DNA of 64,000 nt from the NCBI RefSeq assembly GCF_964213995.1, contig NW_027590274.1, positions 372,001-436,000 on the forward strand, given 5' to 3'. A program made the position numbers and the translations under genes. The notes beneath the pieces are model-generated. The model was not told the origin of the DNA. It worked only from the letters and a program-made list of their open reading frames with translations, and did no database searches. Every line of letters starts with the position of its first letter. Position 1 is the first letter of the stretch. Of the stretch, positions 6,255-60,671 are shown one piece after another. The stretch is from Mustelus asterias. Its lineage: Eukaryota.

Positions 6255-6520
6255 GGTGGCATGGTGGCACAGTGGTTAGCACTGCTGCCTCACAGCACCA
6301 AGGACTCGGGTTCAATTCTGGCTTTGGGTGACTGTGTGGAGTTTGCACATTTTCCCCAAGTCTGTGTGGGTTTCCTCCAGGTGCTCCAGTTTCTTCCCTC
6401 AGTCCAAAGATTGGCAGGTTAGGTTGATTGGCCATAGTAAATTGTCCCTTCATGTCAGGGGAACGAGCAGGGTAAATAAGTGGTATTATGGGGATAGGGC
6501 CTGATGGGATTGTGGTCTGG
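6255..6520 (+). mobile_element. HE1-type SINE
   Basis: gggtggcatggtggcacagtggttagcactgctgcctcacag head with A/B boxes and V-domain. Confidence 0.88.
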
Positions 6521-7764: not shown

Positions 7765-9040
7765 CACTTGTGAACTCACTGGTGTTTCACCAAGTTTGCT
7801 GACTGAGTGAATCACAGTCAGAGCAGGTGACCAGCCTCTGCCCAGTGTGAACTCACTGAAGTACCCATGGGTTGGATGACTTAGTGAATCCCTTCCCACA
7901 CTGAGAGCAGCTCCCCAGTGTGAACTCGCTGGTGTTTCGGCAGTGCTGAAGATATTCTAAATCTCTTTGAGCAGTGAGAGCAGCTGAACGGCCTCTCCTC
8001 AGTGTGAATGCGCTGGTGGGACATCAGCTCTGAGAGCTTTTGAAGCCACTTCCACAGTCAGAGCATTTGAAAGGCCTCAGATTGGTGTGAGTGACTTTAT
8101 GTCTGAGCAGGCTGGATGACTGAGTGAATCCCTTCCCACACAAAGAGCAGGTAAATGGTCTCTCCCCAGTGTGAACTCGCTGGTGGGACACCAGTTCTCC
8201 AGAGCTTTTGAATCTGCTCCCACAGTCAGAGCATTTAAAGGATCTCTCATTGGTGTGAGTGAGATTATGACTCAGCAGGTGGGATAACTGAGTGAATCCC
8301 TTCCCACAGTCAGAACAGGTGAATGGTCACTCCCCAGTGTGAACTCGCTGGTGTCTCTGCAGATTGGATGAGCTTTTAAACCTCTTTCTGCAGTGAGAGC
8401 ATCTGAACGGTCTCTCCTCAGTGTGACACCTGGTGGGACACTGGTTCTCCAGAGGTTTTGAAGCCAATGCTACAGTCAGAGCATTTAAACGTTCCCTCAT
8501 TGGTGTGAGTGAGATTGTGTTTCTGCAGGCTGGATAACTGAGTGAATCCCTTCCCGCACACAGAGCAGGTGAATGGCCGCTCCCCAGTGTGACTGCATCG
8601 ATGAGATTCCAGCTGTGATGGGACCCTGAATCGCCTCCCACAGTCCCCACATTTCCACGGTTTCCCCCTGGTGCGGGTGTTCTTGTGACTCTCCAGGTTC
8701 AACAATCAGTTAAATCTCACACAGAACACGGGTACAGTCTCTCCCCGCTGTGAACGCTGCGGTGTATTTTCTGGCTGTGTAACTGGTTGAATCTCTTCCC
8801 ACACAGTACACTGGAACACACTCACTCGGGTGTATCTGTGTCTCAGTGATTTTTCAGTTACATTTATGTTAAAAAAAATTCTGAAGCAGACAGAACAGAA
8901 AAAGATTTCTCCTTTTAGATTCAAAGGCCAGTGATATTCAGGTCCTGATCAAATGAATAAATCTGTCAGGTCTTGATGTGTTGTTTGATTTGAGATTTCT
9001 GCCTGTAAATCCTCACCTTCTGCAAATCTATCCTGCAAAA
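7765..9040 (-). pseudogene. C2H2 zinc-finger pseudogene (ZNF-A)
   Basis: [16 protein letters not shown] repeats split over several frames by frameshifts and stops; the paralogous first-exon donor at 10601-10606 is mutated (gtgagt to gagagt). Confidence 0.88.
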
Positions 9041-9271: not shown

Positions 9272-10023
9272 TGTGGAGATGTTGGCGTTGGACTGGGGTA
9301 GACACAGTAAGAAGTTTCACAACACCAGGTTAAAGTCCAACAGCTTTATTAGTAGCAGGAGCTTTCGGAGCACTGCTCCTTCATCAGCTGTGTGCAGGAT
9401 TTGGTTCGCAAACAGGGCACATATAGACACAAACTCCATTATAAGATAATGGTTGGAATGCGAGTCTTAACAGGTAATCAAGTCTTTCCAGGTACAATGT
9501 GAGTGGAGAGAGGGTTAAGCACAGGTTAAAGAGGTGTGAATTGTCTCAATGTTGTCTCAATTGTCTCACGTTGTTTCTATCTTAAAGACTTGATTAGCTG
9601 TAAGTATTCGCATTCCAACCATTATTCATGTAAATTGAGTCTGTGTCTTTATCTGCCCTGTTTGTGAACAGAATTCCCACTCACCTGAAGAAGGGGCTTG
9701 GAGCTCCGAAAGCTTGTGTGGCTTTTGCGACCAAATAAACCTGTTGGACTTTAACCTGGTGTTGTTAAACTTCTTACTGAATTGTCTCAAGCCAGGACAG
9801 TTAGTGAGATTTTGCAAGCCCAGCAAGTTGTGGGGGTTACAGATAGTGTGACATGAACCCAAGATCCTGGTTGAGACCGTCCTCGTGTGTGCGGAACTTG
9901 GCTATCAGTTTCTGCTCAGCGATTCTGCGCTGTCGTGAGTCTTGAAGGCCGCCTTGGAGAACACTTACCCGAAGATCAAGGGCATTCAGCCTCTGATCTT
10001 CGGGTAAGTGTTCGCCAAGGCGG
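9272..10023. mobile_element. Penelope-like element 3' end with nested inverted pseudo-LTR and terminal fold-back
   Basis: Same pLTR sequence as the GIY-YIG-bearing copy at 26690-27335; minus copy 9272-9550, plus copy ~9575-9780, continuation to ~9980, hairpin 9949-10023. Confidence 0.8.
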
Positions 10024-10599
10024 TTTATAGTTTAGTTTTGATTGTTTATTAATTAGTGTCACAAGGAGGCTTACATTAACACTGCAATTAAGTCACTTGA
10101 AAATCATGAAAAAAGTGCAAAAAATCTATGAAGTTACTGTGAGAGTCGGTATGGACTCGAGTTGTCCAATGGACTCCTTCTGTGCTGTAATTACTCTATA
10201 ACTGGAAATATATAACGTAGCTACAGTACAATATGACAAGATTGGAATGATAAATACATTTATTGCAGGACCAGGAATAAACCTGGCTGATATAACAACA
10301 CTGGACATATGTCTGTCCTATATTAATTTACTGTCCCCTTAAATGTCAGCCATCTCCTGGGGAAACCAGCCCTTCAATTGTGAACATTAGGAAAGAGACC
10401 ATCCTTTTAGCCAGACAAATAAATGTGTCAAGCTGAGGGAGCAAAGGATGTCAATGTCTTTAAGAGAGAGAGAGACCTGGGCCAACCTTTCTAGAGTCTG
10501 CAGCCTCCCTGGATTCACTTCCTTCCTTCAGTTGCTGCAAGTCCCCAATTTCCCCCAGAATGAGAAAAGAAATGGAAAGGGGGAGAAAAGAAAGTGTTT

Positions 10600-12362: not shown

Positions 12363-12953
12363 TCACTCGTGAGCGTTTTGGTGTCTCAGCAGGTGGGATG
12401 AAGCTCTGAACCCCTTCCCACACTGAGAGCAGATGAATGGCCTCTCCCCAGTGTGAAGTCGCTGGTGCGTCTGCAGGCTGGATAACTGAGTGAATCCCTT
12501 CCCACACTGAGAGCAGGTGAATGGTCTCTCCCCAGTGTGAACTCGCTGGTGTTTCTGCAGGTGAGCTAATTGACTGAACCCCTTCTCACACTGAGAGCAG
12601 GTGAATGGCCTCTCCCCAGTGTGAAGTCGCTGGTGCGTCTGCAGGCTGCATAACTGAGTGAATCCCTTCCCACACTGAGAGCAGGTGAATGGTCTCTCCC
12701 CAGTGTGAACTCGCTGGTGTTTCTGCAGGTTAGCTAATTGACTGAACCCCTTCTCACACTGAGAGCAGGTGAATGGTCTCTCCCCAGTGTGAACTCGCTG
12801 GTGTGTCCGCAGGGTGGATAAATCAGTGAATCCCTTCTCACACTGAGAGCAGGTGAATGGTCTCTCCCCAGTGTGGCTGCGCCGATGAACTTCCAGCTGA
12901 GATGGGGCTCTGCATCCCTTCCCACAGTCCCCACATTTCCATGGTTTCTCCAT
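12363..12953 (-). CDS. C2H2 zinc-finger protein, 7 fingers, no KRAB seen (ZNF-B)
   Basis: Open frame from [11 protein letters not shown] with 7 tandem TGERP-linked fingers; family splice acceptor at 13276-13277. Confidence 0.85.
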
Positions 12954-13984
12954 GGTGCAGGTGTCTTTTCCTCTCTCTTCAGTTGAAGACTCATCCACAC
13001 ACAGAACAGTCTCCCCCCGCTGTGAATGGTGTGATATTTATTCAGGCTGTGTAACTGGTTCAAGCTCAGTGCACTGGAACACACTCACCCGAGTGTGGCA
13101 GCGTGTTGGCTCTTTTGCAGTCACACTGATGTTTGAAATCTTTTCAAGTCATCAGACCGGACAACCATTTCTCCTCGATTCAAAGGCTGATGATATTCAG
13201 CTCCCATGGAATATGACTCTGTCAGATCGAGACACAACGTTTGAGATTTCAGCCTGTGATTCCTCTTTCAGTATCCTGTAAAACAAGTTTACAGAGGTCA
13301 TCAGTGTCAGTACAGGATAGAAATTCAGAACACACAATTCTAGTTTCTATGGAACATTCTTTCCTCTCTCCAGACTCGAAACATTGGCTCTATTCTCTCT
13401 CTATCTGGGGGATAAATTGGGAAATGATGCTGCGGTAGATCAGCCAATTCTCAATGAATGGTTGAGGCAGTTCGATGGGCTGAATGGCCAACTGCAGCTC
13501 CTGTTTCTTATGATTTGTGTGTCCACGACAGGAAGCAGTGAGCATGGATCTGTCAATCAGCCTCAATCAGCACCTTCAGGAGAATTGGGAGGGTGAATAT
13601 TAGATACAGCAGAGTGAGAATGGAGGGAGAGTGAGTGGGATGGAGATTTACAGCTTTTGGGGAACGAGAGAGGAAAGAATGTTCATTAGAATCATAGAAT
13701 TCCTACATCTTATCAACCGTCCCTGAGCTTTCACAATGAATCGCTCTTCTCAGGACACTCTTATCTCTGACTTGTCTGTGCTGCTCGCAGTCTCACAAAG
13801 CAGCTGCCTGTGTGTTGACACAAGGGGCCCTGCGAGGCAAGTTTAATGCTCCATGACTGTGTCTTTAATGACTGAATAACGATAGGAATATGGTCAAGTC
13901 AGCTAAATCACATGATGCTTTATATTTCGGTTAGTAACTGTCCATTTTGTTAACATAGCACATTTGGATATATAAATACATATA

Positions 13985-18643: not shown

Positions 18644-19840
18644 TCACTTGTCAACTCGCTGATGGCTCAACAGGTTGTATTTCTGAGTGAATCCCTTTCC
18701 ACATTTGGAGCAGGTGAACGGCCTCTCCCCAGTGTGAATTCGCTGGTGGACAGAGAGTTGGGATGGTCGCCTGAACCCAGTCCCGCAGTGAGTGCACTTG
18801 AACGGTCTCTCATCAGTGTGACCACGTTGATGAGACATCAGATCACTGCAGCTTTTATAGCATTTCCCGCAGTCTGGACATTTAAAAGGTCTCTCCTCAC
18901 TGTGAACACGTTGATGGGACACTAGATTGCTGGAACTTTTACAGCACTTCCCGCAATCTGGACATTTAAACGGTCTCTCATCGGTGTGAACTTGCTGATG
19001 TGCCATGAGGTGTGATGTCCGAGTGAATCCCTTCCCACAGTCGGTGCAGGTGAACGGCCGCTCCCCAGTGTGAATTCGCTGGTGTTCAGTGAGTTGAGAT
19101 GACCACCTGAACCCAGTCCCGCAGTGAGAGCACCTGAACGGTCTCTCATCAGTGTGAACACGTTGATGGAACATTAGTTCTCTGGAACCTCTATAACACT
19201 TCTCGCAGTCTGGGCATTTAAATGGTCTCTCCTCAGTGTGAACACGTTGATGGAACATCACTTCCTTTAAACTTTTATAGCACTTGCCACATTCTGGACA
19301 TTTAAATGGTCTTTCCTCTGTGTGAACTCGCTGGTGTGTCTGCAGTGTAGATGACTGAGTGAATCCCTTCCCACACTCGGAGCAGGTGAATGGTCTCTCT
19401 CCCTTGTGAACCCGCTGGTGTCTCAGCAGGTTGAATGACTGCGTGAATCGCATCCCACATTCAGAGCAGGTGAATGGCTTCTCCCCAGTGTGAGTGCGCT
19501 GGTGTGTCAGCAGGTTAGATGATTGAGTGAATCCCTTTCCACACTCGGAGCACATAAATGGCCTCTCTCCAGTGTGAACTCGCTGGTGTGTCAGCAGGGT
19601 GGATGACTGAGTGAATCCTCTCCCACACTCAGAGCAGGTGAACAGCCTCTCCCCAGTGTTACTGTATTGGTGAATTTCCAGCTCAGACAGGTCTCTGAAT
19701 CCTTCCCCACATTTCCACGGTTTCTCCTCAGTGTGACTGCACTTGTGTCTTGACAGAGCAGATGATTGTCTGAATCCTTGTCCACACACAGAACACGTGT
19801 ACAGTTTTGCCCCATTGTGAACGGTGGTTTTCCCTTCCAT
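18644..19840 (-). CDS. C2H2 zinc-finger protein, 14 finger units (12 canonical), no KRAB seen (ZNF-C)
   Basis: Open frame from ATG at 19840 (in-frame TGA just upstream); acceptor tttcacag at ~19950; finger 2 lacks a Cys, last finger has His to Asp. Confidence 0.9.
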
Positions 19841-20529
19841 GCTCAAGGTTCAGTTATATTCAGGTTACAATAAATTGGGCAACTCAGTCAGATCCTGATG
19901 TGATGTTTGGTTTGAGTTTCCTGACTGCAAATCCTCCCCTTCTAAAACCCTGTGAAATTGATTTAAAACAGAAAAGAGGGAGTGAGAGAGAATCCACAAA
20001 AACACAAAAGCAGGTTGTGAAATTGAGCTGAATGAATCTGGTCATTTGTGGGGCCGGCACCAGGAAAACATTACCATGGAAACTGCTGGATTGTCATAAA
20101 ACCTCAACTGGTTCACTAATGTCTGCCAGGGAAGGGAATCTGCCATCCAGTCTGGGACTACACAAGGCTCTGGCCTCTATGGATGGAGAGAGAGATGGGG
20201 GCATCTACAACTCAGCCAGAGATTTGAACCTTAAAACCGTTAACCTGCCCACCGAGAAGGATCAGGGTAAGGGGTGTATGTGAACACCATCATCTTCACG
20301 TTTTTCTCCAACTTTACACACCTCCCTTGTCTGACATCCAGGACTGGATGAGCAGTAATTGCCTTTGTTAAATATTGGAAGATGAAGGCTATCATCTCCA
20401 GCCCTGCAACAAATTCCACTTCCTAACCACTGACTCCATCTGTCCCCATTGCGACTGTCTGAGGCTGAACCGGAGTATTCACAACCTCAGTGACATGTTT
20501 CACTTCAAACTGAGCTTCCAAACATATCC

Positions 20530-30560: not shown

Positions 30561-31103
30561 CCTCACTGCACAGTAATAGACCGCCCCGTCCTGCACTCTG
30601 AGGGTGCTTATATTGAGGTAACCGTTCTGTTTAGACGCGTCAGAAGCCGCCAGATATCGTCCTGAAACTTCATCTTCCTTCACTGTTAATGCTTTGGTAA
30701 TAATCCATGTCGCTGGTTGTGTCGGTTTCTGCTGATACCATTGCATGCTGTACATATTCTTGTCTGTATATTCACAACCCAACTGCACTGAATCCCCTTC
30801 TGATGCGGTTATTGGCAGCGATGACTGCTACTGGATCTGCGCACAGTCCGCCTGTGAAGGTAGAGGAATGAAATATCAAGAGTTAATGTTTGTATCTGCG
30901 ATTGTTTCTGCAGCACCCGCCCCTCCCCCCCCCCCCCTCCCCCCACCTCCCCCACCCTCACCCCCACCTCCCCCACCCCCATTCACCCCTCACATCGATA
31001 ATTGTGATGGTTAATTATATTACCATCTAATGTGTTTATCTGGCTTGATGTACGTTACCCAGTGCTTACCGTGCAAGAGCGCCGCCAGGAAGATCAGAAA
31101 CAT
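30561..31103 (-). pseudogene. TCR alpha/delta-type V segment with one frameshift
   Basis: Leader 31103-31070 (MFLIFLAALLH, donor gtaagc), V exon 30851-30561: GLCADPV/frameshift/QSSLPITASEGDSVQLGC...WYQQKP...DGAVYYCAVR. Confidence 0.9.
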
Positions 31104-31370
31104 GTCTGAGTGAATCTATCTCACTGAATGGGAACGGAGTGAGTCAGAGGTTGAGAAGGAGAGAGGGAACCCGGGCTCTGTTCAGCTCATTGCAGTGAGT
31201 GTGTTTGTGAGAGTGTCAGTGTGCGTGGGTCAGTGTGAGTTTATGTGTCTGTGTTTGTGGGTGTTGGGGGGAGGGGGGGGGGCTGTGTCTATTGTGACCT
31301 CACAAGCCTACCATCCATGCAGGTTTCAGTGATAATATCACGTGAGTTTCTGGCGCCCAGGCTAGAATGT

Positions 31371-31386
31371 GGCGCCCTCTGGTGGC
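31371..31386 (-). promoter_or_regulatory. CTCF consensus motif
   Basis: gccaccagagggcgcc on minus strand, ~270 bp upstream of the V leader. Confidence 0.75.
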
Positions 31387-31737
31387 GGGTTCTGCGCGCT
31401 GGAATTAGGCTGTTGACTGGGTTCCTCACTACAATACAGAACAAGACACACATGCTGCCGAAAAATCTAAATTGCGGCTCTTTAGACACGGTCTTTGTGA
31501 CTGTTGATATTTATTTGGGAAAATGATGCTAAATCTGTGAAAATCATGGCTGGAGTTCGCTGTTCAAATCCTGGGACGACAAAATCGGGAGATCGCCCAT
31601 CCTTTGGACAAATTGGTTATAAATCAGAATAGTGTCAGGGATTAACAGACTAATTTGGTTTCTTTGGTTTATAACAAGGAAGGTACGAAAAGTAACTTTA
31701 TTGACCTGTTCAGAATGTTGCCCTTTTCAGAGGGTAA

Positions 31738-31987
31738 AATGTGGTATTATAACTCCATTTTAAAGTCACCTGTTCTTCTGTTTTAACTGCTGCGGACCGC
31801 GGCTGAGTGACAGAGTCTCCATGAGCCACATCTGGAAAAGTTTGCCTTTTCCAGAAGAGGTAGATTCATGAAAAATGATTCTACACCCGAGGTGCAGTCT
31901 CAGATTTGAAAAAGGGAATAAATAAAAACGCGGAAGAATTTATCGTCGGAAATTGTCGAACACAAACATGAGTCTTGAAGATTCATA
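31738..31987 (-). pseudogene. TCR V relic (decayed leader and framework 1 only)
   Basis: ttttccag acceptor then DVAHG-DSVTQPRSAAVKTEEQVTLKWSYNTTF, paralogous to the V at 43390; first Cys changed to Trp, remainder missing. Confidence 0.8.
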
Positions 31988-32024
31988 GGTGGGAGAAAGC
32001 TGCATTTTGTAGTTCCATATCTCT

Positions 32025-32039
32025 GCCACCAGAGGGCAG
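32025..32039 (+). promoter_or_regulatory. CTCF consensus motif
   Basis: gccaccagagggcag just upstream of the relic V leader. Confidence 0.7.
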
Positions 32040-32476
32040 GACGATACCATGTTGCGTTCAGGCTCGGGGCTATTTGCAGTCTCCAGTCATGGCCAGTAAC
32101 ATTATTGAGAAAATGTAATTAAAAGAGCAAATGTCGGAACAGAAATATTTTAGCATTGATAGCAAACTTATATTGTTTCACGAGATATATTATGAGTTTT
32201 CAAAGTTGCTATTACTGTTGGTATACTGCAAATATTCTCGTTCGTTCAGCTTGGCATTCGGCATTCTTTGTGTAGCCTGGCGGGTAATATGTGTACTTCA
32301 TAGACAAAAGCGCCCAGTCGAGTTCGCAATATTGGGCGGATATTTTGCTGGAGCTTTAAGTCCACAAATGCTGATGTGGTGGATTATTTCAACAATGTCG
32401 GCTTTCATCAGAGATGGCTAAACTGCTTTGGCGAAAGAGAAATGAGCTATATTTTGCTTACGCTTGCTTTTGGGTA

Positions 32477-32567
32477 GGTTGGTTGGTCGAAGAGCATGAT
32501 TATTGCTTCGGGTATTTTAGTCGATGAGACATGCGGGAGGTTCCGGGTTCAAATCCTAGACGAGCCC
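32477..32567 (+). pseudogene. tRNA-Pro(CGG) pseudogene with a 19-nt insertion at the canonical intron position
   Basis: Aligns to vertebrate tRNA-Pro (3' half ggttccgggttcaaatcctagacgagccc); anticodon CGG 32509-32511; insertion 32513-32531; several stem mismatches. Confidence 0.8.
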
Positions 32568-33125
32568 TTTAATTGCCTCCTTTTGACCAAGTCAGGTATT
32601 GTGATTTGTTTCGGGTGCAAACGGCGGGATTGCTTTCCGCTGGCCAACTCCGAAAAAGGATCATAGAGGCACAAAGTTTTACAGAACGGAAAGGGGCCCT
32701 TCGGCCCATCGTGTCCGGGTTGGCCATCTGACATCTGGACTGGAAACGTTAACTCTGTTTCTCGCTCCGCAGATACTGCCAGAACTACTGAAATAACCCA
32801 GCATTTTCTGTTTTTATTTCAGATTTACAGAATCTGCAGTATACTGCATTATATACAAGCACATATATAAAGCCTAACAGAAGGCAGCATACTATATAAC
32901 TATCTATCTAGATAGATCACTATGGGAGGAAACCGGAGCACCCGGAGGAAACTACAGGGAGAAAGTGCAAACTCCACACATACTGTGACCCGAGGTCAAG
33001 AATTGAACCTGGGACCCTGGCGCTGTGAGGCAGCAGTGCTAACCCAAAATGCATCTTCCCAGAAACAGCCAGGGTCTATAAGAAATGCATTTGCCAGCGT
33101 TGGACACCTAACCGTTTGATATCTG

Positions 33126-33198
33126 CACTCCAGATGGGACTCGAGTACACAACCCGTGGTTTATAAAGCCAGTATCTTACCCATTACGGCAATGGGGT
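33126..33198 (-). pseudogene. tRNA-Arg(CCT)-derived pseudogene
   Basis: 73-nt gap-free match to GCCCCAGTGGCCTAATGGATAAGGCACTGG...TCGAGTCCCACCTGGGGTG with many substitutions including the anticodon. Confidence 0.75.
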
Positions 33199-34457
33199 TG
33201 CATTCGTGCTATTGCTGCAGCTTGTAAAAGCTGCAAATCTTCATCATCACAGATAGTGACTAAGCCAGGAATCGAAACAACGTACTTGGCATGCTGAGGC
33301 AGCAGATCTAACCATTGTGGCGTCCTCTCCCACAAAATTCTATGAGATTCTATAAATTGCAGATTTTGTTTATTTCTTTGCGGTGCAGATGAAGGGATTG
33401 GTTCTCATGGGGTTTAGTTTGAGAACCTGAGCACAAACTGCGGGGAATCTATCAGCACAACACACTCGATAGACAATCAAGATACGTTCAACAGGGTTGG
33501 CTATGCAACTGGGCATTCATTTTATCCCCATTCACCTCTTCAGCTGACCCCATGACTGCGGGTTCGGGGAACTGGCTGGATGTTTCTTTTTGTTCATGTG
33601 GGTGTCGCTTGGTTAGATCAGCATGGACTGCCCATCAGTAATTACCCTTGAGAATGTGGTGGTGACCTGTCTTCTTGAAACGTTGCAGTGTATTTGTGTA
33701 GGTACACCCACAGTGCTGTTAGGGAGAGAATTCCAGGAATTTATCCCAATGACAGTGAAGGAACGGTGATATATTTCCAAATCAGAATGCTGAGTGACTT
33801 GAGTTGGGGGGGGGGGGGGGGAAGGGGGTATGCAGTGGATCGGGGGAATGGGGGCAAACCTGCCAGTGGTAGTGGTCTTGGGTTTTGAAGGTGCTGTCTA
33901 ATGTGCGTTTGGTGAATTCCTGCATCCTCCAGACAAGTGGAAAGTATTCTGTCACACTCCTGATTTGTGCCTTGTAGATCGTGGTCTGTTTTTTGGGAGT
34001 CAGGAGGTGAGTTATTCGCCGCAGGTTTCTCAGCCTCTGACCTGCTCTTGTAGCCACCTCGAACTGATAAAATGTCTCCTGAGTCACAATAAGCGCATCT
34101 TCTTTCCTGTTCATTTTGTTGTGAATTTTCAGCACTTCTCTTTTTCCCTGAATGTATTTTTAGGCATAAGTAAGAGCCAATGTCTTTGATTGTAAGATAT
34201 TCTACTCGGGTAATGTTCGGCAGTGGATTCACAGAGGGAGTAGTTAGGGGTTGAGTCGTGTTACTGTCGCTGGAAATTAAACGCAGAGAAGCAGGCTGAA
34301 TTCCAACACAGCAGATTGACTGAATTCAAGGGCCATTAGGGATGGCAGTAAATAAAATATGAATTAAGCAACCTTTCCTCACTTAAACGTATTGGTTTCT
34401 GCCCGGCTTTGAACCGTCTGGCCAATATGTAGCAAATGTTGCAAATTCCCCATATGT

Positions 34458-34530
34458 GGGCCAGTGGCGCAATGGATAACGCGTCTGACTACGGATTAGA
34501 AGATTCCAGGTTCGACTCCTGGCTGGCTCG
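34458..34530 (+). tRNA. tRNA-Arg-ACG: tRNA-Arg(ACG)
   Basis: Matches the vertebrate sequence except one C to T giving a G-U pair in the anticodon stem; T5 terminator at ~34538. Confidence 0.93.
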
Positions 34531-35864
34531 GTGTAAATTTTTAAAATAGTTCGTAAACTCCATTTCAGTTTCGATGAAAAAATGTATTTTCAGTAACTTT
34601 AAACCAATTCAGACAAATGTTTACTCAATCCAGTCACCTTCGATGAAGAAATTTATCTTAGGTCATTAATTTTCAAAAGAAAGTTGGCCATTTTAAGTAA
34701 GATTCCACTGATAAACTTTCATTGAGTATGTTTAAATTATTTTCTTTAAATTACGAATTTTCGTGAAATTATTTGGAACAAGTATTTTAAGCTATCTTTT
34801 AAAAAGTTGGGAATTTCTAGATAAATAACGTGGAAATCTTACATTTTTGAAAATGGTGAAAATAGTTTCTAATAAGTTGATGAAAATTTGTAAAACTCTG
34901 CGAAGGAATTTAATTTAAATATCTTTCATAGAAAGAAGTTCACAAAATACTCAAGTTCCATCGAAATGTTTTTTCAAAAGTTGAGAAATTCTAGTTAAAT
35001 TCCATTGAGGAATTTCTTTGAAGTAAGTTTCGTTTAGAAAAGTTAAAATTAGCGAGGTTTATGACCCTGCGATTATTCTCCATTTGAGCGAAGAAGATTG
35101 AGGAGTGATTTAATCGAGGTGGACTAAATTAGGATAAGTTTTGAGGGGGAAGAGGCAAATTTAAAGATTTTTGGCAAGGCGGGCGCAGAGAAGATTTGGA
35201 AGGAACATTTTTCCGCAGCGAGCACTAAGAACCAGAAACTCATTGCCTACGAGTGTTAGATGCAGTTAATTTAGATAAATATAAATTCTGAGGCCGGAGA
35301 TGGATTTCCTGAGAAAAGAGATGTTTCCAGGAACATTCTGAGGCAAGTATAAAGTTTATTTATTAGTCACAAGTAGGCTTACATTCACACTGAAATTAAG
35401 TTACTGTGAAAATCCCCGAGTCTCCACACTCCAACGCCTGTTCAGAATCTCCTCGATGATATTGAATCTGGAAGATCAATCTATGGAACCATACCCCTTC
35501 CCCCTCCACCGCCCCCACCCGCTGCTGTGATGTTTGATAAGAACCCTGCTGATGTTAAATGCGAGGCATCCCAAAATCAAAAAAAGGTATTTTGGGACAT
35601 TGGTTCTTAGTTGTGTATGTTTTCAATTTGATATAATATGAAAAGAGATATGCAAAATATTGAAACTATCGAATTGGAACTTCCGACATTGTTACAACAA
35701 CATTAACTGTTTCCCCTCACGGCCACCACCTCCCACGCTGTGTAAGGGGCCAATATTGTAGCGAATTCTCGTCTCTCTAAAAATCAACTTGACTGATTCG
35801 CTGAAGCTGCTCTGACGTAATGAATTGGAGATCAAAGGGTCTGTGAGCTGATTGGATGAATTGG

Positions 35865-37454: not shown

Positions 37455-37511
37455 GTTTCTATAGTGGTTATCACGTTCGCCTCACACGCAAAAGGTCCCC
37501 GGGGGGAAACG
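37455..37511 (+). pseudogene. tRNA-Val(CAC) pseudogene, internally deleted
   Basis: tagtggttatcacgttcgcctcacacgcaaaaggtcccc; T-loop and part of the 5' end missing. Confidence 0.85.
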
Positions 37512-38656
37512 TTCATTAAGTTTTCTCATGTCGGGTGAAGAAATCTGCATGATTTCAGTTCGTTGCTCAACATTATCCGAACTTTGATGTGACAGCCAAA
37601 TTATTTTTGCTCTAACCTGAGCCTCAAATGCTTTCTGTAAAATAAGAAATGCTGATATCTCTTGACGCACTGACAGGAAAGAAACCTTTCGACTTTGACA
37701 ACGTGTACATATTCGCATGTCGTTCAGTCTACAACCGAATTTAATGGGTCTATCAGTGCAGAATGACATAATCACCATCTGGAACATGACAAATAGTAGT
37801 GTGTGCTCAAAAAGACAGACACAAGTGATACTGTAAGTAAACCAGAGGAAATGGCGCACATTTCCCAGAAGAGTTTTTATATCGTTCTTCATAGCAAAAA
37901 TTTGGAAAAGCCACTGAAACAGATGAGGAAATCGAGACTCAGTGCGGATCTACTGGACTTTCCCATAGATGGCCGGAATTCATGCGTCTGAATGTTTCGC
38001 GCCCATGACAAAAAAAGGCTCAAGTGTAACTAAGAGATAATTCTTCAATCCCTTCCATTTAAATGTAATTGACTTTGTTTAAAAGCTGACTATGGTCATT
38101 CTCAAAATTGCGATCTGTATTACCCGGTGACTCGATTCATTTGGTGGTCAGTTATGTTTGCAATTGAGTGATATTCAATTTCAGAGATATTCAATTCATC
38201 ATGAAGACGTGTGTTAAATAATGCGTTGATACTAAATATTGAAACAAATACTGAGTACAATTGTACAATGAGCGTTGATGAAGTGTCATCTGGACACGAA
38301 ACGTCAGCTCCTTTCTCTTCTTACAGATGCTTGTGAGGTTTTCCAGCATTTCCTCTTTTGGTTTCAGATTCCAGCATCCTCAGTAATTTGCTTTTATTAC
38401 TGAGTACAATTGGTTGAGATTATTCGAAGAAAGATGAAAATTAATGAATGAGCCGAAATCTTTGCTCCCTTAGAAAAATGATGGACGAACGCTTTTAAAC
38501 TTTGACGTTAAAGTTAAGTTGAGCAATCAGGTTGAAAGTAACGGTTGTCTGCCGATTTAAGTGACATTGGCACTCAGTCGAACCATTGGAATCTGCAGCA
38601 ACACAGCGCAGTTGAACATTGCAGACAGGCCCATTTGTTTTAAGCTGTTGCCAGCT

Positions 38657-38718
38657 GTTTCTGTATTGTAGTGGTTATCACGTTCGCCTCACATGCGAAA
38701 GGGCCGCGGTTCGAAACA
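38657..38718 (+). pseudogene. tRNA-Val(CAC) pseudogene lacking the 3' stem strand
   Basis: gtttctgtattgtagtggttatcacgttcgcctcacatgcgaaagggccgcggttcgaaac; deletion between the two gaaac repeats. Confidence 0.85.
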
Positions 38719-47046: not shown

Positions 47047-47436
47047 GCTTCACCACAGACTCAAACTTCACCACAGACTCAAACTTCACCACAGACTCAA
47101 ACTTCACCACAGACTCAAACTTCACCACAGACTCAAACTTCACCACAGACTCAAACTTCACACACAGACTCAAACTTCACCACAGACTCAAACTTCACAC
47201 ACAGACTCAAACTTCACACACAGACTCAAACTTCACACACAGACTCAAACTTCACACACAGACTCAAACTTCACCACAGACTCAAACTTCACCACAGACT
47301 CAAACTTCACCACAGACTCAAACTTCACACACAGACTCAAACTTCACCACAGACTCAAACTTCACCACAGACTCAAACTTCACCACAGACTCAAACTTCA
47401 CCACAGGCTCAAACTTCACACACAGACTCAAACTTC
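47047..47436. repeat. Minisatellite, ~21 units of 18-21 bp (cacagactcaaacttcac)
   Basis: Direct inspection; ends in the ZNF-family first-exon sequence and donor ct|gtgagg at ~47455. Confidence 0.95.
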
Positions 47437-48694: not shown

Positions 48695-50005
48695 GCTATT
48701 AGAAGGGGAGAATTTACGGACACAAATCTCAACAAACATGACGTTAGGATCTGACAGAGTCACCCAATTATTCAGGATCTGAATACCATCGGCATTTGAA
48801 ACTAGAATGGAAAATGTTTGTCTGTTCCTTCAAACTGTTTAAACATCAGTGTGACTGGAAAATCACTGAGACACAGACACTCGAGTGAGAGTATTCCAGT
48901 GAACTGACTGTGGAAAGAGCTTTAACCAGTTACACAGCCTGGAAAAGATTGAAGGATTCACAGTGAGGAGAGAGACCATGTATGTGTTATCTGTGGGGTC
49001 AAACCTTCATCTGAACCTGGAGATGTACAAAGACACTCAGACCGTGGAAATGTAGGGACTGTGGGAAGGGATTCAATTGTCCCTCGAAGCTGGAAACCCT
49101 TCGATGCAGCCACACTGTGGAGACACCGTTCACCTGCTCTGAGTTTGGAAGGGGATTTCGTGATTCATCCACCCTGAGGAATCACCAGCGACTTCACATC
49201 AGGGAGAGGCCATTCACCTGCTCTGAGTGTGGGAAGAAATTCAGCGATCCGTCTGCCCTGCTGACACAGCAGCGGGTTCACAATGGGGAGAGACCATTCA
49301 CCTGTTGTGTGTGTGGAAAGGGATTCACTCAGTCATCTACCCTGCAGAACCACCAGCGATTTCACACGGGTGAGGGACTGCTCCCCTGCTCAGAGCGTGG
49401 GAAGGGATTCACTCTCTCATCCCTCCCGCTGACAAACCAACACATTCACACTGGGCCGAGGCCATTCATCTGTTCCGAGTGTGGGAAGGGATTCACTCAA
49501 TTATCTAGTCTGCTGAGACACAAACGATTACACACTGGGGAAAGGCCATTCATCTGATGTGTGTGTGGGAAGTGACTCAGTCAATCATCCAGTCTGCTGG
49601 AATACTGAGGCACCTCCCCCAATAAGAAACCTGTTCAATGCTCTGACTGTGGGAGCTGCTTTTAAACCTGAGCCTACCTGAGGGTCAACCAGCGCATTCA
49701 CACTGAGGAGACCCCGTTCAGGCGCTCTCACTGTGCAAAGAGGTTTAGAACATCATCTGACCTACTGAAACATCAGGGAATTCACACTGGGGAAGAGACC
49801 CTGATCATTCCCACTCACTTTCAGCGATTTCTCATAAAACCTACCAGATTGGAAGCTTCTGCCTGAAATTTTATTTTCCCTTAGTTTCCAAACTGAGACC
49901 ATTCACCTGCTCAGTGGGTGGGAAAGGATTCACTTGTTCACCCAAGCTGCTGACACACCATGGCAGTCACACCCATTAGTGATCTTTTGGATGCTCTGAC
50001 TGTGG
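48695..50005 (+). pseudogene. C2H2 zinc-finger pseudogene (ZNF-D)
   Basis: Family acceptor ttcacag at 48694; fingers with lost Cys/His, stops after 49557, ends at an LTR. Confidence 0.85.
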
Positions 50006-57975: not shown

Positions 57976-58986
57976 TCACTTGTGAACTTGTTGATGTCTC
58001 AGCAGCTGGGATGAAACTGTGAATCCCTTCCCACACTGAGAGCAGATGAATGGCCTCTCCCCAGTGTGAACTCGCTGGTGTGTCCGCAGGCTGGATAACT
58101 GAGTGAATCCCTTCCCACACTGAGAGCAGGTGAACGGCCTCTCCCCAGTGTGAACTCGCTGGTGTGTCCGCAGACTGGATGACTGAGTGAATCCCTTCCC
58201 ACACTGAGAGCAGGTGAATGGCCTCTCCCCAGTGTGAACTCGCTGGTGTTTCTGCAGGCTGGATAACTCAATGAATCCCTTCCCACATTGAGAGCAGGTG
58301 AAGGGCCTCTCCCCAGTGTGAATTCGCTGGTGTGTCTGCAAGTGGGATGACTGCGTGAATCCCTTCCCACACTGCGAGCAGATTAATGGCCTCTCCCCAG
58401 TGTGAACTCGCTGGTGTGTCTGCAGGCTGGATAACTGAGTGAATCCCTTCCCACACTGAGAGCAGGTGAACGGCCTCTCCCCAGTGTGAACTTGCTGGTG
58501 TTTCTGCAGGCTGGATAACTCAATGAATCCCTTCCCACATTGAGAGCAGGTGAACGGCCTCTCCCCAGTGTGAACTCGCTGGTGAGTCAGCAGGTTGATT
58601 GACCGAGTGAATCCCTCCCCACACTGAGAGCAGGTGAATGGCCTCTCCCCAGTGTGAACTCGCTGGTGTCTCTGAAGGTGGGATGACTGAGTGAATCCCT
58701 TCCCACACTGAGAGCAGCTGAATGGCCTCTCTCCAGTGTGAACTCGCTGGTGTGACTGCAAGCTGGATGACCGAGTGAATCCCTTCCCACACTGAGAGCA
58801 GGTGAACGGTCTCTCCCCAGTGTGAACCCGCTGGTGTGACTGCAGGCTGGATGACAGAGTGAATCCCTCCCAACACTGAGAGCAGGTGAATGGTCTCTCC
58901 CCAGTGTGGCGGCGCCGATGAGCTTCCAGCAGAGATGGGGCTCTGTATCTCTTCCCACAGTCCCCACATTTCCATGGTTTCTCCAT
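57976..58986 (-). CDS. C2H2 zinc-finger protein, 12 fingers, no KRAB seen (ZNF-E)
   Basis: Open 336-codon frame from [11 protein letters not shown]; acceptor 59338-59339; intact first-exon donor 61285-61290. Confidence 0.92.
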
Positions 58987-60671
58987 GGTGCAGGTGTCCT
59001 TGCCTCTCTCTTGGGTGGACAATCAGTTGAAGCCTCGTCCACACACAGAACACGAGTACAGTCTCTCCCCGCTGTGAATGGTGCGATAGTTATTCAGGCT
59101 GTGTAACTGGTTAAAGCTCTTTAGTCCGTGCGCTGGAAGACTCTCACTCGAGTGTGGCAGTGTGTTGGTGCTTTTGCAGTCACACTGATGTTTGAAATCT
59201 TTTCAAATCAACAGACTGGACAATCATTTCTCCTTCCAGATTCAAAGGCCGATGATATTCAGCTCCCATGGAATATGACTCTGTCAGATCGAGACGTGAC
59301 GTTTGAGATTTCAGCCTGTGATTCCTCTTTCAATATCCTGTAAAACGAGTTCACAAAAGTCATCAGTGTCAGTACACGATAGAAATTCAGGACAGACAAT
59401 TCTAGTTTCTATAGTTTCTTTCCTCTCTCATTCCCCAAAAAGCTGTGAATCTCCATCCCACACACTCTCCCTCCATTCTCACTCTGCTGTATCTAATATT
59501 CACCCTCCCAATTCTCCTGAAGGTGCTGATTGAGGCTGATTGACAGATCCACGCTCACTGCTTCCTGTCCTGGACACAGAGACCATAACAAATAGGAGCT
59601 GCAGTCGGCCATTTGGCCCATCGAGCCTTTTAAACTATTCAATGAGATAACTTGTTCATCTCCCTCAGCATTATTGTCCCCACACTAAACCCATATCCCT
59701 TGATATCTTCAATATCTAGAAACCAATCAATCTCTCTCTTGCAAGTAGTTGATGACTGAGGCTTCCCTGTCCTCAGGGGTTGAGAATTCCAAAGCTTTAC
59801 CACATCCTTGAGTGAAGAAATCCCCCCACATATTAGCTTTTGCTCCATCCTCTTGTCTGTTCCCCATAACCCTTGACACCTTTGTCAGTCAAAAATCTGT
59901 CTAACTGGAATATATTCAATGATCCTCATCCTCAACTGGTTCCTGTGGAAGAGAAATCCAAAAGACTCACAACCCTCTGAGGGAAGAGATGTCTGGAAAT
60001 ATATAACGTAGCTACAGTTCCATATTACAAGATATTCAGATCCCAAGGAATATGACTCTTTCTAGATTTGACGGTTGAGATTTTTGCCTGTGATTCCTCA
60101 TTCAAAATCCTGTGAAATGAGTTTGCAAAAGTCATCACAGTCAGTATAGGATAGAAATTCAGAGCAGACAATTCTAGTTTCTATGGAACATTCTTTCCTA
60201 TTTCATTCCCAAAAAGTTGTAAATCTCCATCTATATCTATGGATTCTAGTTAAAAATGAAAGTGGATGGGCACTTGAAGGAAATAAACTTTCAGGAGAAT
60301 GGGGATATAGAGTGGGAATGGGACTGGAATGTTATACAGAGAGTCAGCATGGACTCGAGTTACCGAATGGATTCGAGTTACCGAATGGATTCCTTCTGTG
60401 CTGTAATGGGCTTTATGACTGGAAATGTATAACATCGCTACAGCATTATATTACAATGCAAGAAATAATAATAAAAGTATTTTATTACAGAAACATAAAT
60501 AATATATCTAATCTGGGTACCATATAACAACACTAGACATATCTCTGTCCTATATAAACGTAAATGTCAGCCATCTCCTGGGGAAAGCTGCCCTTTAATT
60601 GTGAACATTCGGAAAAAGACCATCCTTTTAGACAGACAAATAAATGTGTCAAGCTGAGGGATCAAAGGATA

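Follow-up and report, generated by a model that had tools for sequence, protein, structure and literature searches.

The 64,000-nt stretch of Mustelus asterias DNA analyzed here (the window) carries, on the plus strand at 32477–32567, a tRNA-Pro body with the anticodon CGG and a 19-nt insert, as read from its sequence. Our preferred explanation, to which we give a probability of roughly 0.8, is that this copy is a decayed and duplicated tRNA-Pro(CGG) pseudogene with its insert at position 37/38, and that it belongs to a set of about 200 Pro genes with the anticodons AGG, CGG, and TGG whose inserts likely undergo splicing by TSEN and RTCB. By itself, the window copy is an ordinary, segmentally duplicated pseudogene; its value lies in the family that it marks. 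In intact members of this family, RNA polymerase III would make a pre-tRNA in which the 3' end of the intron pairs with the loop bases 32–35. TSEN would cut this precursor by its mature-domain ruler and the anticodon–intron (A–I) pair, and the ligated tRNA would be identical or nearly identical to the product of the few intronless genes.

Results and Discussion

The tRNA-Pro(CGG) Copy in the Window

Without its insert the window copy is 72 nt long, and 12 of these 72 exon positions differ from the intronless Pro-CGG gene of this genome (L061; Table 1). The 5' exon contains G18A in the A-box region as well as C5G and C27A, both of which break stem pairs, and G64A in the 3' exon breaks a T-stem pair; the pairs lost are 5:68, 27:43, and 50:64. 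The joined exons fold with −18.8 kcal/mol, compared to −30.2 kcal/mol for the intact gene, and do not form a cloverleaf. The intact cloverleaf and the invariant bases of a functional tRNA-Pro gene are absent, which confirms the decay proposed in an earlier note on this DNA. The insert follows directly on G37 (32512), exactly one base 3' of the anticodon, as that note had also claimed. Since the insert and the 3' exon both start with T, the placement can slide one base rightward; position 37/38 is the canonical reading. The T4 run inside the intron is an internal terminator of a kind that a functional gene should lack, and a retrocopy ends there. Such a run stops vertebrate RNA polymerase III, and a premature stop at this site is likely. 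However, the near-intact gene L094 also contains a T4 run inside its intron, and an intronic T4 need not kill a gene.

Table 1. Features of the relic and its surroundings (positions in the window)
Feature	Position	Strand	Basis
5' exon, decayed, positions 1–37	32477..32512	+	sequence; compared with intronless L061
Anticodon CGG	32509..32511	+	sequence; comparison with L061
19-nt intron at 37/38 (18-nt type lengthened by one base)	32513..32531	+	sequence, alignment
T4 run within the intron (TTTC in older relatives)	32515..32518	+	alignment; retro-insertion L016–L022 ends here
3' exon, decayed, positions 38–73	32532..32567	+	comparison with L061
B-box (T-loop), same as in the intact gene	32547..32555	+	sequence, comparison with L061
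3' trailer ending in the original T4 terminator (32581–32584)	32568..32584	+	like trailers in older retrocopies L026 and L030
Compared part of the segmental duplication bearing the relic (compared span; the true ends may differ)	30957..34090	.	98.2–99.0% identity over ~3.1 kb, 9 other loci
Intronless tRNA-Arg(ACG), internal contrast	34457..34531	+	ARAGORN, Rfam

At default settings ARAGORN and Rfam missed the relic and found only the neighboring Arg-ACG gene in the window. Relaxed ARAGORN detects the relic but labels it incorrectly as Arg-TCG.

The relic occurs at 13 or more places in the genome by segmental duplication, a lower bound from 29 scored candidates: eight places match at 100% over 133–134 nt, two at 97%, one at 92%, and one at 86%, and one is split by an insertion (L013/L014). 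Since the flanks are 98–99% identical too, we attribute this copy number to passive duplication. A different reading is that the relic has been kept for a job, either as the source of a 5'-half RNA that stops in the intron or as a TFIIIC-bound boundary in the zinc-finger array. The unchanged B-box, the eight perfectly identical copies, and a truncated transcript that was apparently present in the germ line at least once would fit such a role. Yet the equally high identity of the flanks marks the identity of the copies as recent duplication, the older copies L009–L012 differ at different exon sites, as under drift, and one copy has been interrupted. We therefore hold a retained function to be very unlikely. 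Transfer RNA pseudogenes in segmental duplications are known, and the window copy is an ordinary example that differs from the others in keeping its intron; to our knowledge, the family of this intron is not known from vertebrates. On several other contigs, too, Arg-ACG matches lie at a distance of ~2 kb from the relic, and the Arg(ACG) gene in the window likely belongs to the same duplicated unit.

Intron-Bearing Pro Genes across the Genome

We searched this one genome with exact patterns comprising the anticodon loop, a gap (10–30 nt in the CGG pattern), and the start of the 3' exon. Pro-CGG with an insert, by a pattern slightly looser than the TGG and AGG patterns, was found at 33 places (8 of the relic type and 25 others with 14–18 nt at 37/38), Pro-TGG at 111, and Pro-AGG at 64. 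The gapless exact Pro pattern matches 10 places (6 TGG, 3 AGG, and 1 CGG), or 28 if up to three mismatches are allowed. On the exact patterns, an insert is present at about 200 of the 210 non-relic Pro places. Reversed controls of all Pro and Arg patterns produced no match, and since 33 Pro-CGG places contrast with none in the reversed control, the insert of the relic is not due to chance. The Pro introns are short (13–19 nt); the pattern matches fix the insert at 37/38, and ARAGORN puts the intron there in intact genes. One could still suppose that the relic is a dead tRNA copy that acquired its insert by chance, with only the position resembling an intron, given that its own anticodon–intron helix is poor in the canonical register. 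This explanation has almost no probability left, because about 200 Pro places carry an insert at the same site, including older relatives with the same intron type.

These results support the claim that the relic derives from an intron-containing Pro-CGG family, at least in this one shark genome: there are 25 other Pro-CGG places, and 12 of 24 compared CGG rows are near-intact, so that the insert is not unique to the window copy and intact intron-bearing Pro genes do exist. The family exists as claimed, but the claim was too narrow, since Pro-TGG (111), Pro-AGG (64), and Arg-TCG (59) bear introns too. Among the listed CGG, TGG, and AGG insert matches (for TGG, 100 of the 111), none is an intact gene with an intron of the relic type.

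Exons were compared in rows from 30 of the 33 CGG, 30 of the 111 TGG, and 30 of the 64 AGG matches and from neighbors of these, with four decayed GGG rows dropped. Among 76 distinct intron-bearing rows, 47 show at most two exon differences from L061 (19/23 AGG, 12/24 CGG, and 16/29 TGG), 13 show none, and 29 are decayed. A T4 run lies within 17 nt in 29 of the 47 near-intact genes, and 7 of the 47 have no T4 within 120 nt. All seven perfect intronless Pro genes have T-runs within a few bases, and most decayed intronless retrocopies have trailers that, judged by eye, resemble those of the few intronless genes. The intronless Pro genes may supply a larger share of the tRNA than their number implies.

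ARAGORN mislabels some Pro bodies as Ala, Gln, or Arg; we rejected the calls Ala-AGC, Gln-TTG, and Arg-TCG on such bodies as miscalls. For annotation, this means that intron-bearing Pro genes are easily missed or assigned a wrong anticodon. No RNA data set is listed as containing an intact Pro-CGG locus, and two sequencing runs guessed to be RNA yielded no contig on the 3' flank of this locus. Two runs of one other study (X6 and X8) cover only the 3' flank of this locus, mostly at 90–100% identity, and are silent on intron, splicing, and species.

Two individual sites may be recorded here. At 64.52 Mb of C19, a large contig outside the arrays, lie two intron-bearing Pro-AGG genes (L094 and L095) with unique introns, a C20 variant, and close T-runs, which makes them suitable anchors for synteny. 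L035 and L053 (C71:15.85 Mb and C140) contain adjacent Pro-TGG and Pro-CGG genes with common flanks and a nearly identical intron; in this pair the anticodon has shifted recently, and intron base −5 has yet to follow.

Arg-TCG and Other Isoacceptors

Arg-TCG is in the same intron state as the Pro genes in this genome. All 59 genome-wide matches to the Arg pattern with an insert are TCG, whereas 94 of the 95 matches without an insert are ACG and one is TCG; for Arg-ACG the counts are 0 with and 94 without an insert. This strict split by anticodon, obtained with the same pattern in the same regions, argues against an artefact of assembly or pattern. The Arg-TCG introns are 16–22 nt long, and inserts of 19 nt were first seen in fetched stretches. 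The inserts in the Pro and Arg-TCG genes are likely spliced out, to judge from their sequences. The intron-bearing Arg-TCG genes lie on C26, C72, C75, C85, C102, C103, and other contigs (L303–L322), several with (GAT)n of varying length; the sole intronless match is L381 (C24).

Within ~800 kb of fetched tRNA-rich sequence and the stored loci, Gly, Leu-CAG/TAA/TAG, initiator Met, Ser, Lys, Thr, Cys, Gln, Asn, Val, Asp, Glu, Trp, and Arg-ACG/CCT genes are intronless, in a survey that samples His, Phe, Ala, Ile, Leu-CAA, and Arg-CCG poorly. Arg-TCT carries its usual intron in this genome. A genome search with an Arg-CCG pattern gave no match with or without an intron and is uninformative. Of the 897,371 candidates in a genome-wide Rfam tRNA search only 63 were scored, and this search is not a census; the 30 loci stored from it are Lys-TTT genes beside Thr and Val. 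One such region (G000:C16:97.2–98.6 Mb, L273–L302) is a tandem array of a ~1.79 kb unit with Lys-TTT and Thr genes, in which the Thr bodies have the anticodons AGT, CGT, GGT, and in one case AGG.

Conservation and the Anticodon–Intron Helix

Among 362 pairs chosen only by a 5' flank identity of 0.6–0.9, the exons (outside the search pattern) are 0.91 alike, the introns 0.69, and the 3' flanks 0.58. For 1081 pairs of near-intact genes the values are 0.96 for exons, a figure that is partly circular, 0.47 for introns, and 0.50 and 0.49 for the two flanks, the last three being close to random. The near-intact genes provide 36 distinct anticodon–intron combinations, which fall into 8 intron lineages and are not independent. 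In these combinations, base 32 can pair with intron base −3 in 30 of 36, base 33 with −4 in 35, base 34 with −5 in 31, and base 35 with −6 in all 36. With shuffled introns the means are 17, 17, 13, and 19, and the observed values were not attained once in 5000 shuffles. At base 36, pairing is limited to 7 of the 36. The four helix positions sum to 132 of 144, compared to 50–75 when the register is slid by 1–2, and the resulting structure has the form of a bulge-helix-loop. This helix agrees with the description of such structures in the available part of PMC10275265.

All eight lineages have mostly A at −4 and a pyrimidine at −6, and seven of them have a purine at −3. Intron base −5 follows base 34, with T in 14/15 AGG, G in 5/8 CGG, and A in 10/13 TGG combinations; counted by lineage, the 34:−5 majority is Watson–Crick in only 5/8, and the lineage with introns of 13–14 nt keeps T under all three anticodons. 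The A–I pair, formed by base 32 and the third-last intron base, is present in 15/15 AGG, 13/13 TGG, and 12/12 Arg-TCG introns. The main intact Pro-CGG family fails to form it: U stands opposite U32 in 6 of 8 distinct CGG introns, while 33–35 mostly still pair. Human TSEN requires the A–I pair for 3' cleavage, according to the available text of PMC8479045, and the CGG family, in which U faces U32, lends itself naturally to testing this rule. In Arg-TCG the pair is C32–G(−3) in 12/12 distinct introns, with 34–36 paired in 11–12 and 33 in none. Together, conservation and helix appear as signs of selection for splicing.

The strongest competing explanation is that the intron-bearing genes are mostly silent passengers of zinc-finger/tRNA arrays, that the intronless genes make the tRNA, and that the likeness of the exons reflects recent duplication and gene conversion. 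Most matches do lie on repeat-rich contigs as near-identical copies, 29 of the 76 intron-bearing rows are decayed, the seven perfect intronless genes have their T-runs within a few bases, and the main CGG family lacks the A–I pair. Gene conversion, however, would have to spare the central 13–19 nt as well as both flanks in order to produce the similarity values found for the 1081 pairs, where the exon figure is partly circular. The −4 and −6 bases are kept in all eight intron lineages, and retrocopies with leader, intron, and trailer speak for germline transcription. Furthermore, Arg-TCG has only 1 intronless match versus 59 with an intron, and L094 and L095, located on a large contig, have introns of their own and T-runs nearby. 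We consider silent passengers improbable and prefer transcribed and probably spliced genes.

History of the Relic Intron

Five relatives of the relic-type intron (L015, L023, L025, L026, and L093) are 18 nt long and contain TTTC but no T4. L023 is an older paralogue with flanks 72% alike, and the other four are retrocopies. By contrast with these 18-nt relatives, the complete copies of the relic lineage that were aligned (L003, L007–L009, L011, and L012) all have 19 nt with TTTT, and the extra base sits near the 3' end of the intron. This detail decides how the relic's own A–I pair should be read. The earlier note had pointed to a pair between U32 (32507) and the third-last intron base, A (32529). 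The two bases can indeed pair, but the pair fails as an A–I argument since it arises from the one-base insertion. The third-last intron base is G or C, not A, in four of the five 18-nt relatives, and the helix register of L026 (U32·G, U33–A, C34–G, G35·U) is shifted by one in the relic. Because the extra base shifts the register, the U32–A pair is coincidental, and we rejected it as an inherited feature.

Old retrocopies extend to the trailer, and one made after decay stops in the intron; the ancestor would therefore have been fully transcribed before T4 and the extra base were gained. We picture this ancestor with an 18-nt intron and transcription from the leader to the terminator. The intronic change TTTC>TTTT (probably causing a premature polymerase III stop), one extra intron base, and exon substitutions would have followed, and the decayed relic would then have been copied passively with the zinc-finger/tRNA block.

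Retrocopies as Probable Transcript Fossils

Chimeric retrocopies of small RNAs and LINEs, such as U6–L1, are known, as is the shark pair of HE1 SINE and HER1 LINE; U6–L1 chimeras form by template switching. Many dispersed copies in this genome join a tRNA that retains a few leader bases, its intron, and a short trailer directly to a SINE, and look like pre-tRNAs captured by such switching. They resemble U6–L1 in that a Pol III transcript precedes a truncated LINE or SINE on its 5' side and the fusion product has a target-site duplication. They differ in their 5' partners, which appear to be pre-tRNAs that were unspliced, likely spliced (L122), or stopped inside the intron (L016).

L122, an intronless Pro-TGG, shows two exon differences. 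It shares 88% identity in its 43-nt trailer with the intron-bearing L072 and L070, has the same 4-nt leader as L072/L076, and continues after the trailer into a 5'-truncated LINE (RVT_1, E 7.7e-11). Among the 28 intronless copies L122 alone has a trailer of the intron-bearing type; other high scores come from the SINE. The simplest reading is that L122 is likely a spliced but untrimmed pre-tRNA that was reverse-transcribed; it could alternatively reflect two template switches or conversion by an intronless gene. On the simplest reading, L122 is a candidate direct product of intron loss via reverse transcription of a spliced precursor. At the same locus (L122:796–1149 and 1512–1863) an inverted partial duplicate of the chimera starts exactly at the first base of the 3' exon, like a TSEN 3' half, although this start may be a chance breakpoint. 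A perfect 15-bp hairpin (1441–1475) abuts the 5' end of the tRNA.

L016–L022 go back to a single insertion of 148 nt that was duplicated afterwards; it has an 8-bp target duplication, and L419 preserves the empty site. The insertion contains the relic-type 5' exon from G1, 6 nt of the intron up to the T-run, and ~105 nt of a repeat 3' end that recurs in many other repeat copies, as is characteristic of chimeric retrocopies. The fused RNA was probably the relic's own transcript, ending in the T-run of the intron, though the junction could reflect microhomology. A TSEN 5' half was rejected because the copy extends 6 nt into the intron, and seven independent events were rejected because the flanks are 96–99% alike. 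Chimeras of intronless Pro tRNA with SINEs or LINEs (L353–L380; C3 128–147 Mb, C4 147 Mb, C10 112–121 Mb, and C17 71–72 Mb) lie mostly a few Mb from their likely source. Their nearness to source genes suggests local capture of nascent Pol III transcripts.

Relation to Known Systems

The set of four intron-bearing families in mammals is often taken as the vertebrate set. In human, these are Tyr-GUA (13/13 genes), Ile-UAU (5/5), Arg-UCU (5/6), and Leu-CAA (5/7), as given in the available part of PMC10275265, and 28 of 429 high-confidence human tRNA genes contain an intron, as given in that of PMC8479045. Since the four families sum to 28, these two partial sources leave no intron-bearing gene for Pro or Arg-TCG. 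The shark Pro and Arg-TCG introns resemble human TSEN introns in their 37/38 position, short length, pyrimidine-32:purine(−3) pair, and helix with 33–35, as well as in the variation of introns within a family and the mixture of intron-bearing and intronless members. They differ in the families concerned, which are Pro-AGG, Pro-CGG, Pro-TGG, and Arg-TCG.

Transfer RNA introns range from 6 to 133 nt, and yeast tRNA-Pro(UGG) forms an intron family in which every one of the 10 genes has an intron (PMC4090602, available part). Like this family, the shark genes combine a Pro tRNA with a canonical intron, and the yeast case demonstrates that splicing can go together with ProRS identity and a G37 loop. 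Unlike in yeast, intron-bearing and intronless genes coexist here. The acceptor stems differ and the introns are unrelated, both from those of yeast and from those of Pro genes in metagenomes, which we take to be fungus-like. The acceptor stem of this genome is absent from the rows of 80 parsed metagenome Pro loci (of 121 stretches), in which helix pairing is also weaker (48, 30, 28, and 41 of 65); with their other acceptor stems, these loci provide no animal outgroup.

Searches of the main texts of open-licence PMC and bioRxiv articles turned up no account of introns in Pro or Arg-TCG genes of sharks or any other vertebrate. Within this scope, the intron is of a known kind, and the isoacceptors that carry it have not been reported to do so in vertebrates. 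GtRNAdb may already list such genes without comment; elephant shark tRNA predictions are mentioned in the available part of PMC8450103. A wider proposal, for which we see the chances as evenly divided, is that cartilaginous fishes have a larger tRNA-splicing repertoire than mammals, that ~95% of their Pro genes (all three anticodons) and almost all Arg-TCG genes need TSEN alongside a few intronless genes with an identical mature product, that intron base −5 followed anticodon shifts, that LINE-captured unspliced, spliced, and prematurely ended pre-tRNAs form a fossil record of intron spread and loss, and that all this is undescribed. The gain, loss, and upkeep of tRNA introns is an open question (PMC10275265, in the part available). 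A vertebrate with mostly intron-bearing Pro and Arg-TCG genes implies that introns were either gained on a large scale in one lineage or lost on a large scale in another. Where the same mature tRNA is encoded by intron-bearing and intronless genes in one genome, the effect of the intron on expression, modification, and turnover is directly testable.

Surroundings of the Relic

The genome measures 3.68 Gb, and the window (C242:372001–436000) lies among C2H2 zinc-finger exons and pieces of LINEs. The best named relatives of a LINE protein from this genome belong to cartilaginous fishes (Chiloscyllium 65%, Callorhinchus 64%, Leucoraja 63%, Hypanus 62%, and Pristis 60%), with 40–50% in birds and turtles, as would be likely for a shark or ray; a search with the zinc-finger protein reached at most 55% identity and did not fix the taxon. 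The zinc-finger exons (84-bp repeats) occupy window positions 7977–8416, 12363–13037, 18644–19849, 49015–49589, and 57976–59022, interleaved with tRNA genes and relics. Two partial tRNA-Val-like relics (37462–37510 and 38656–38717) are ~90% identical to Val-AAC over 49 and 62 nt, and weaker Gly/Glu-like traces occur near 6261, 45300, and 62900. A long near-perfect hairpin at 9945–10027 gives weak, sub-threshold matches to several microRNA families, and a minisatellite at 47048–47436 consists of 21 copies of an 18-bp unit with 97% matches.
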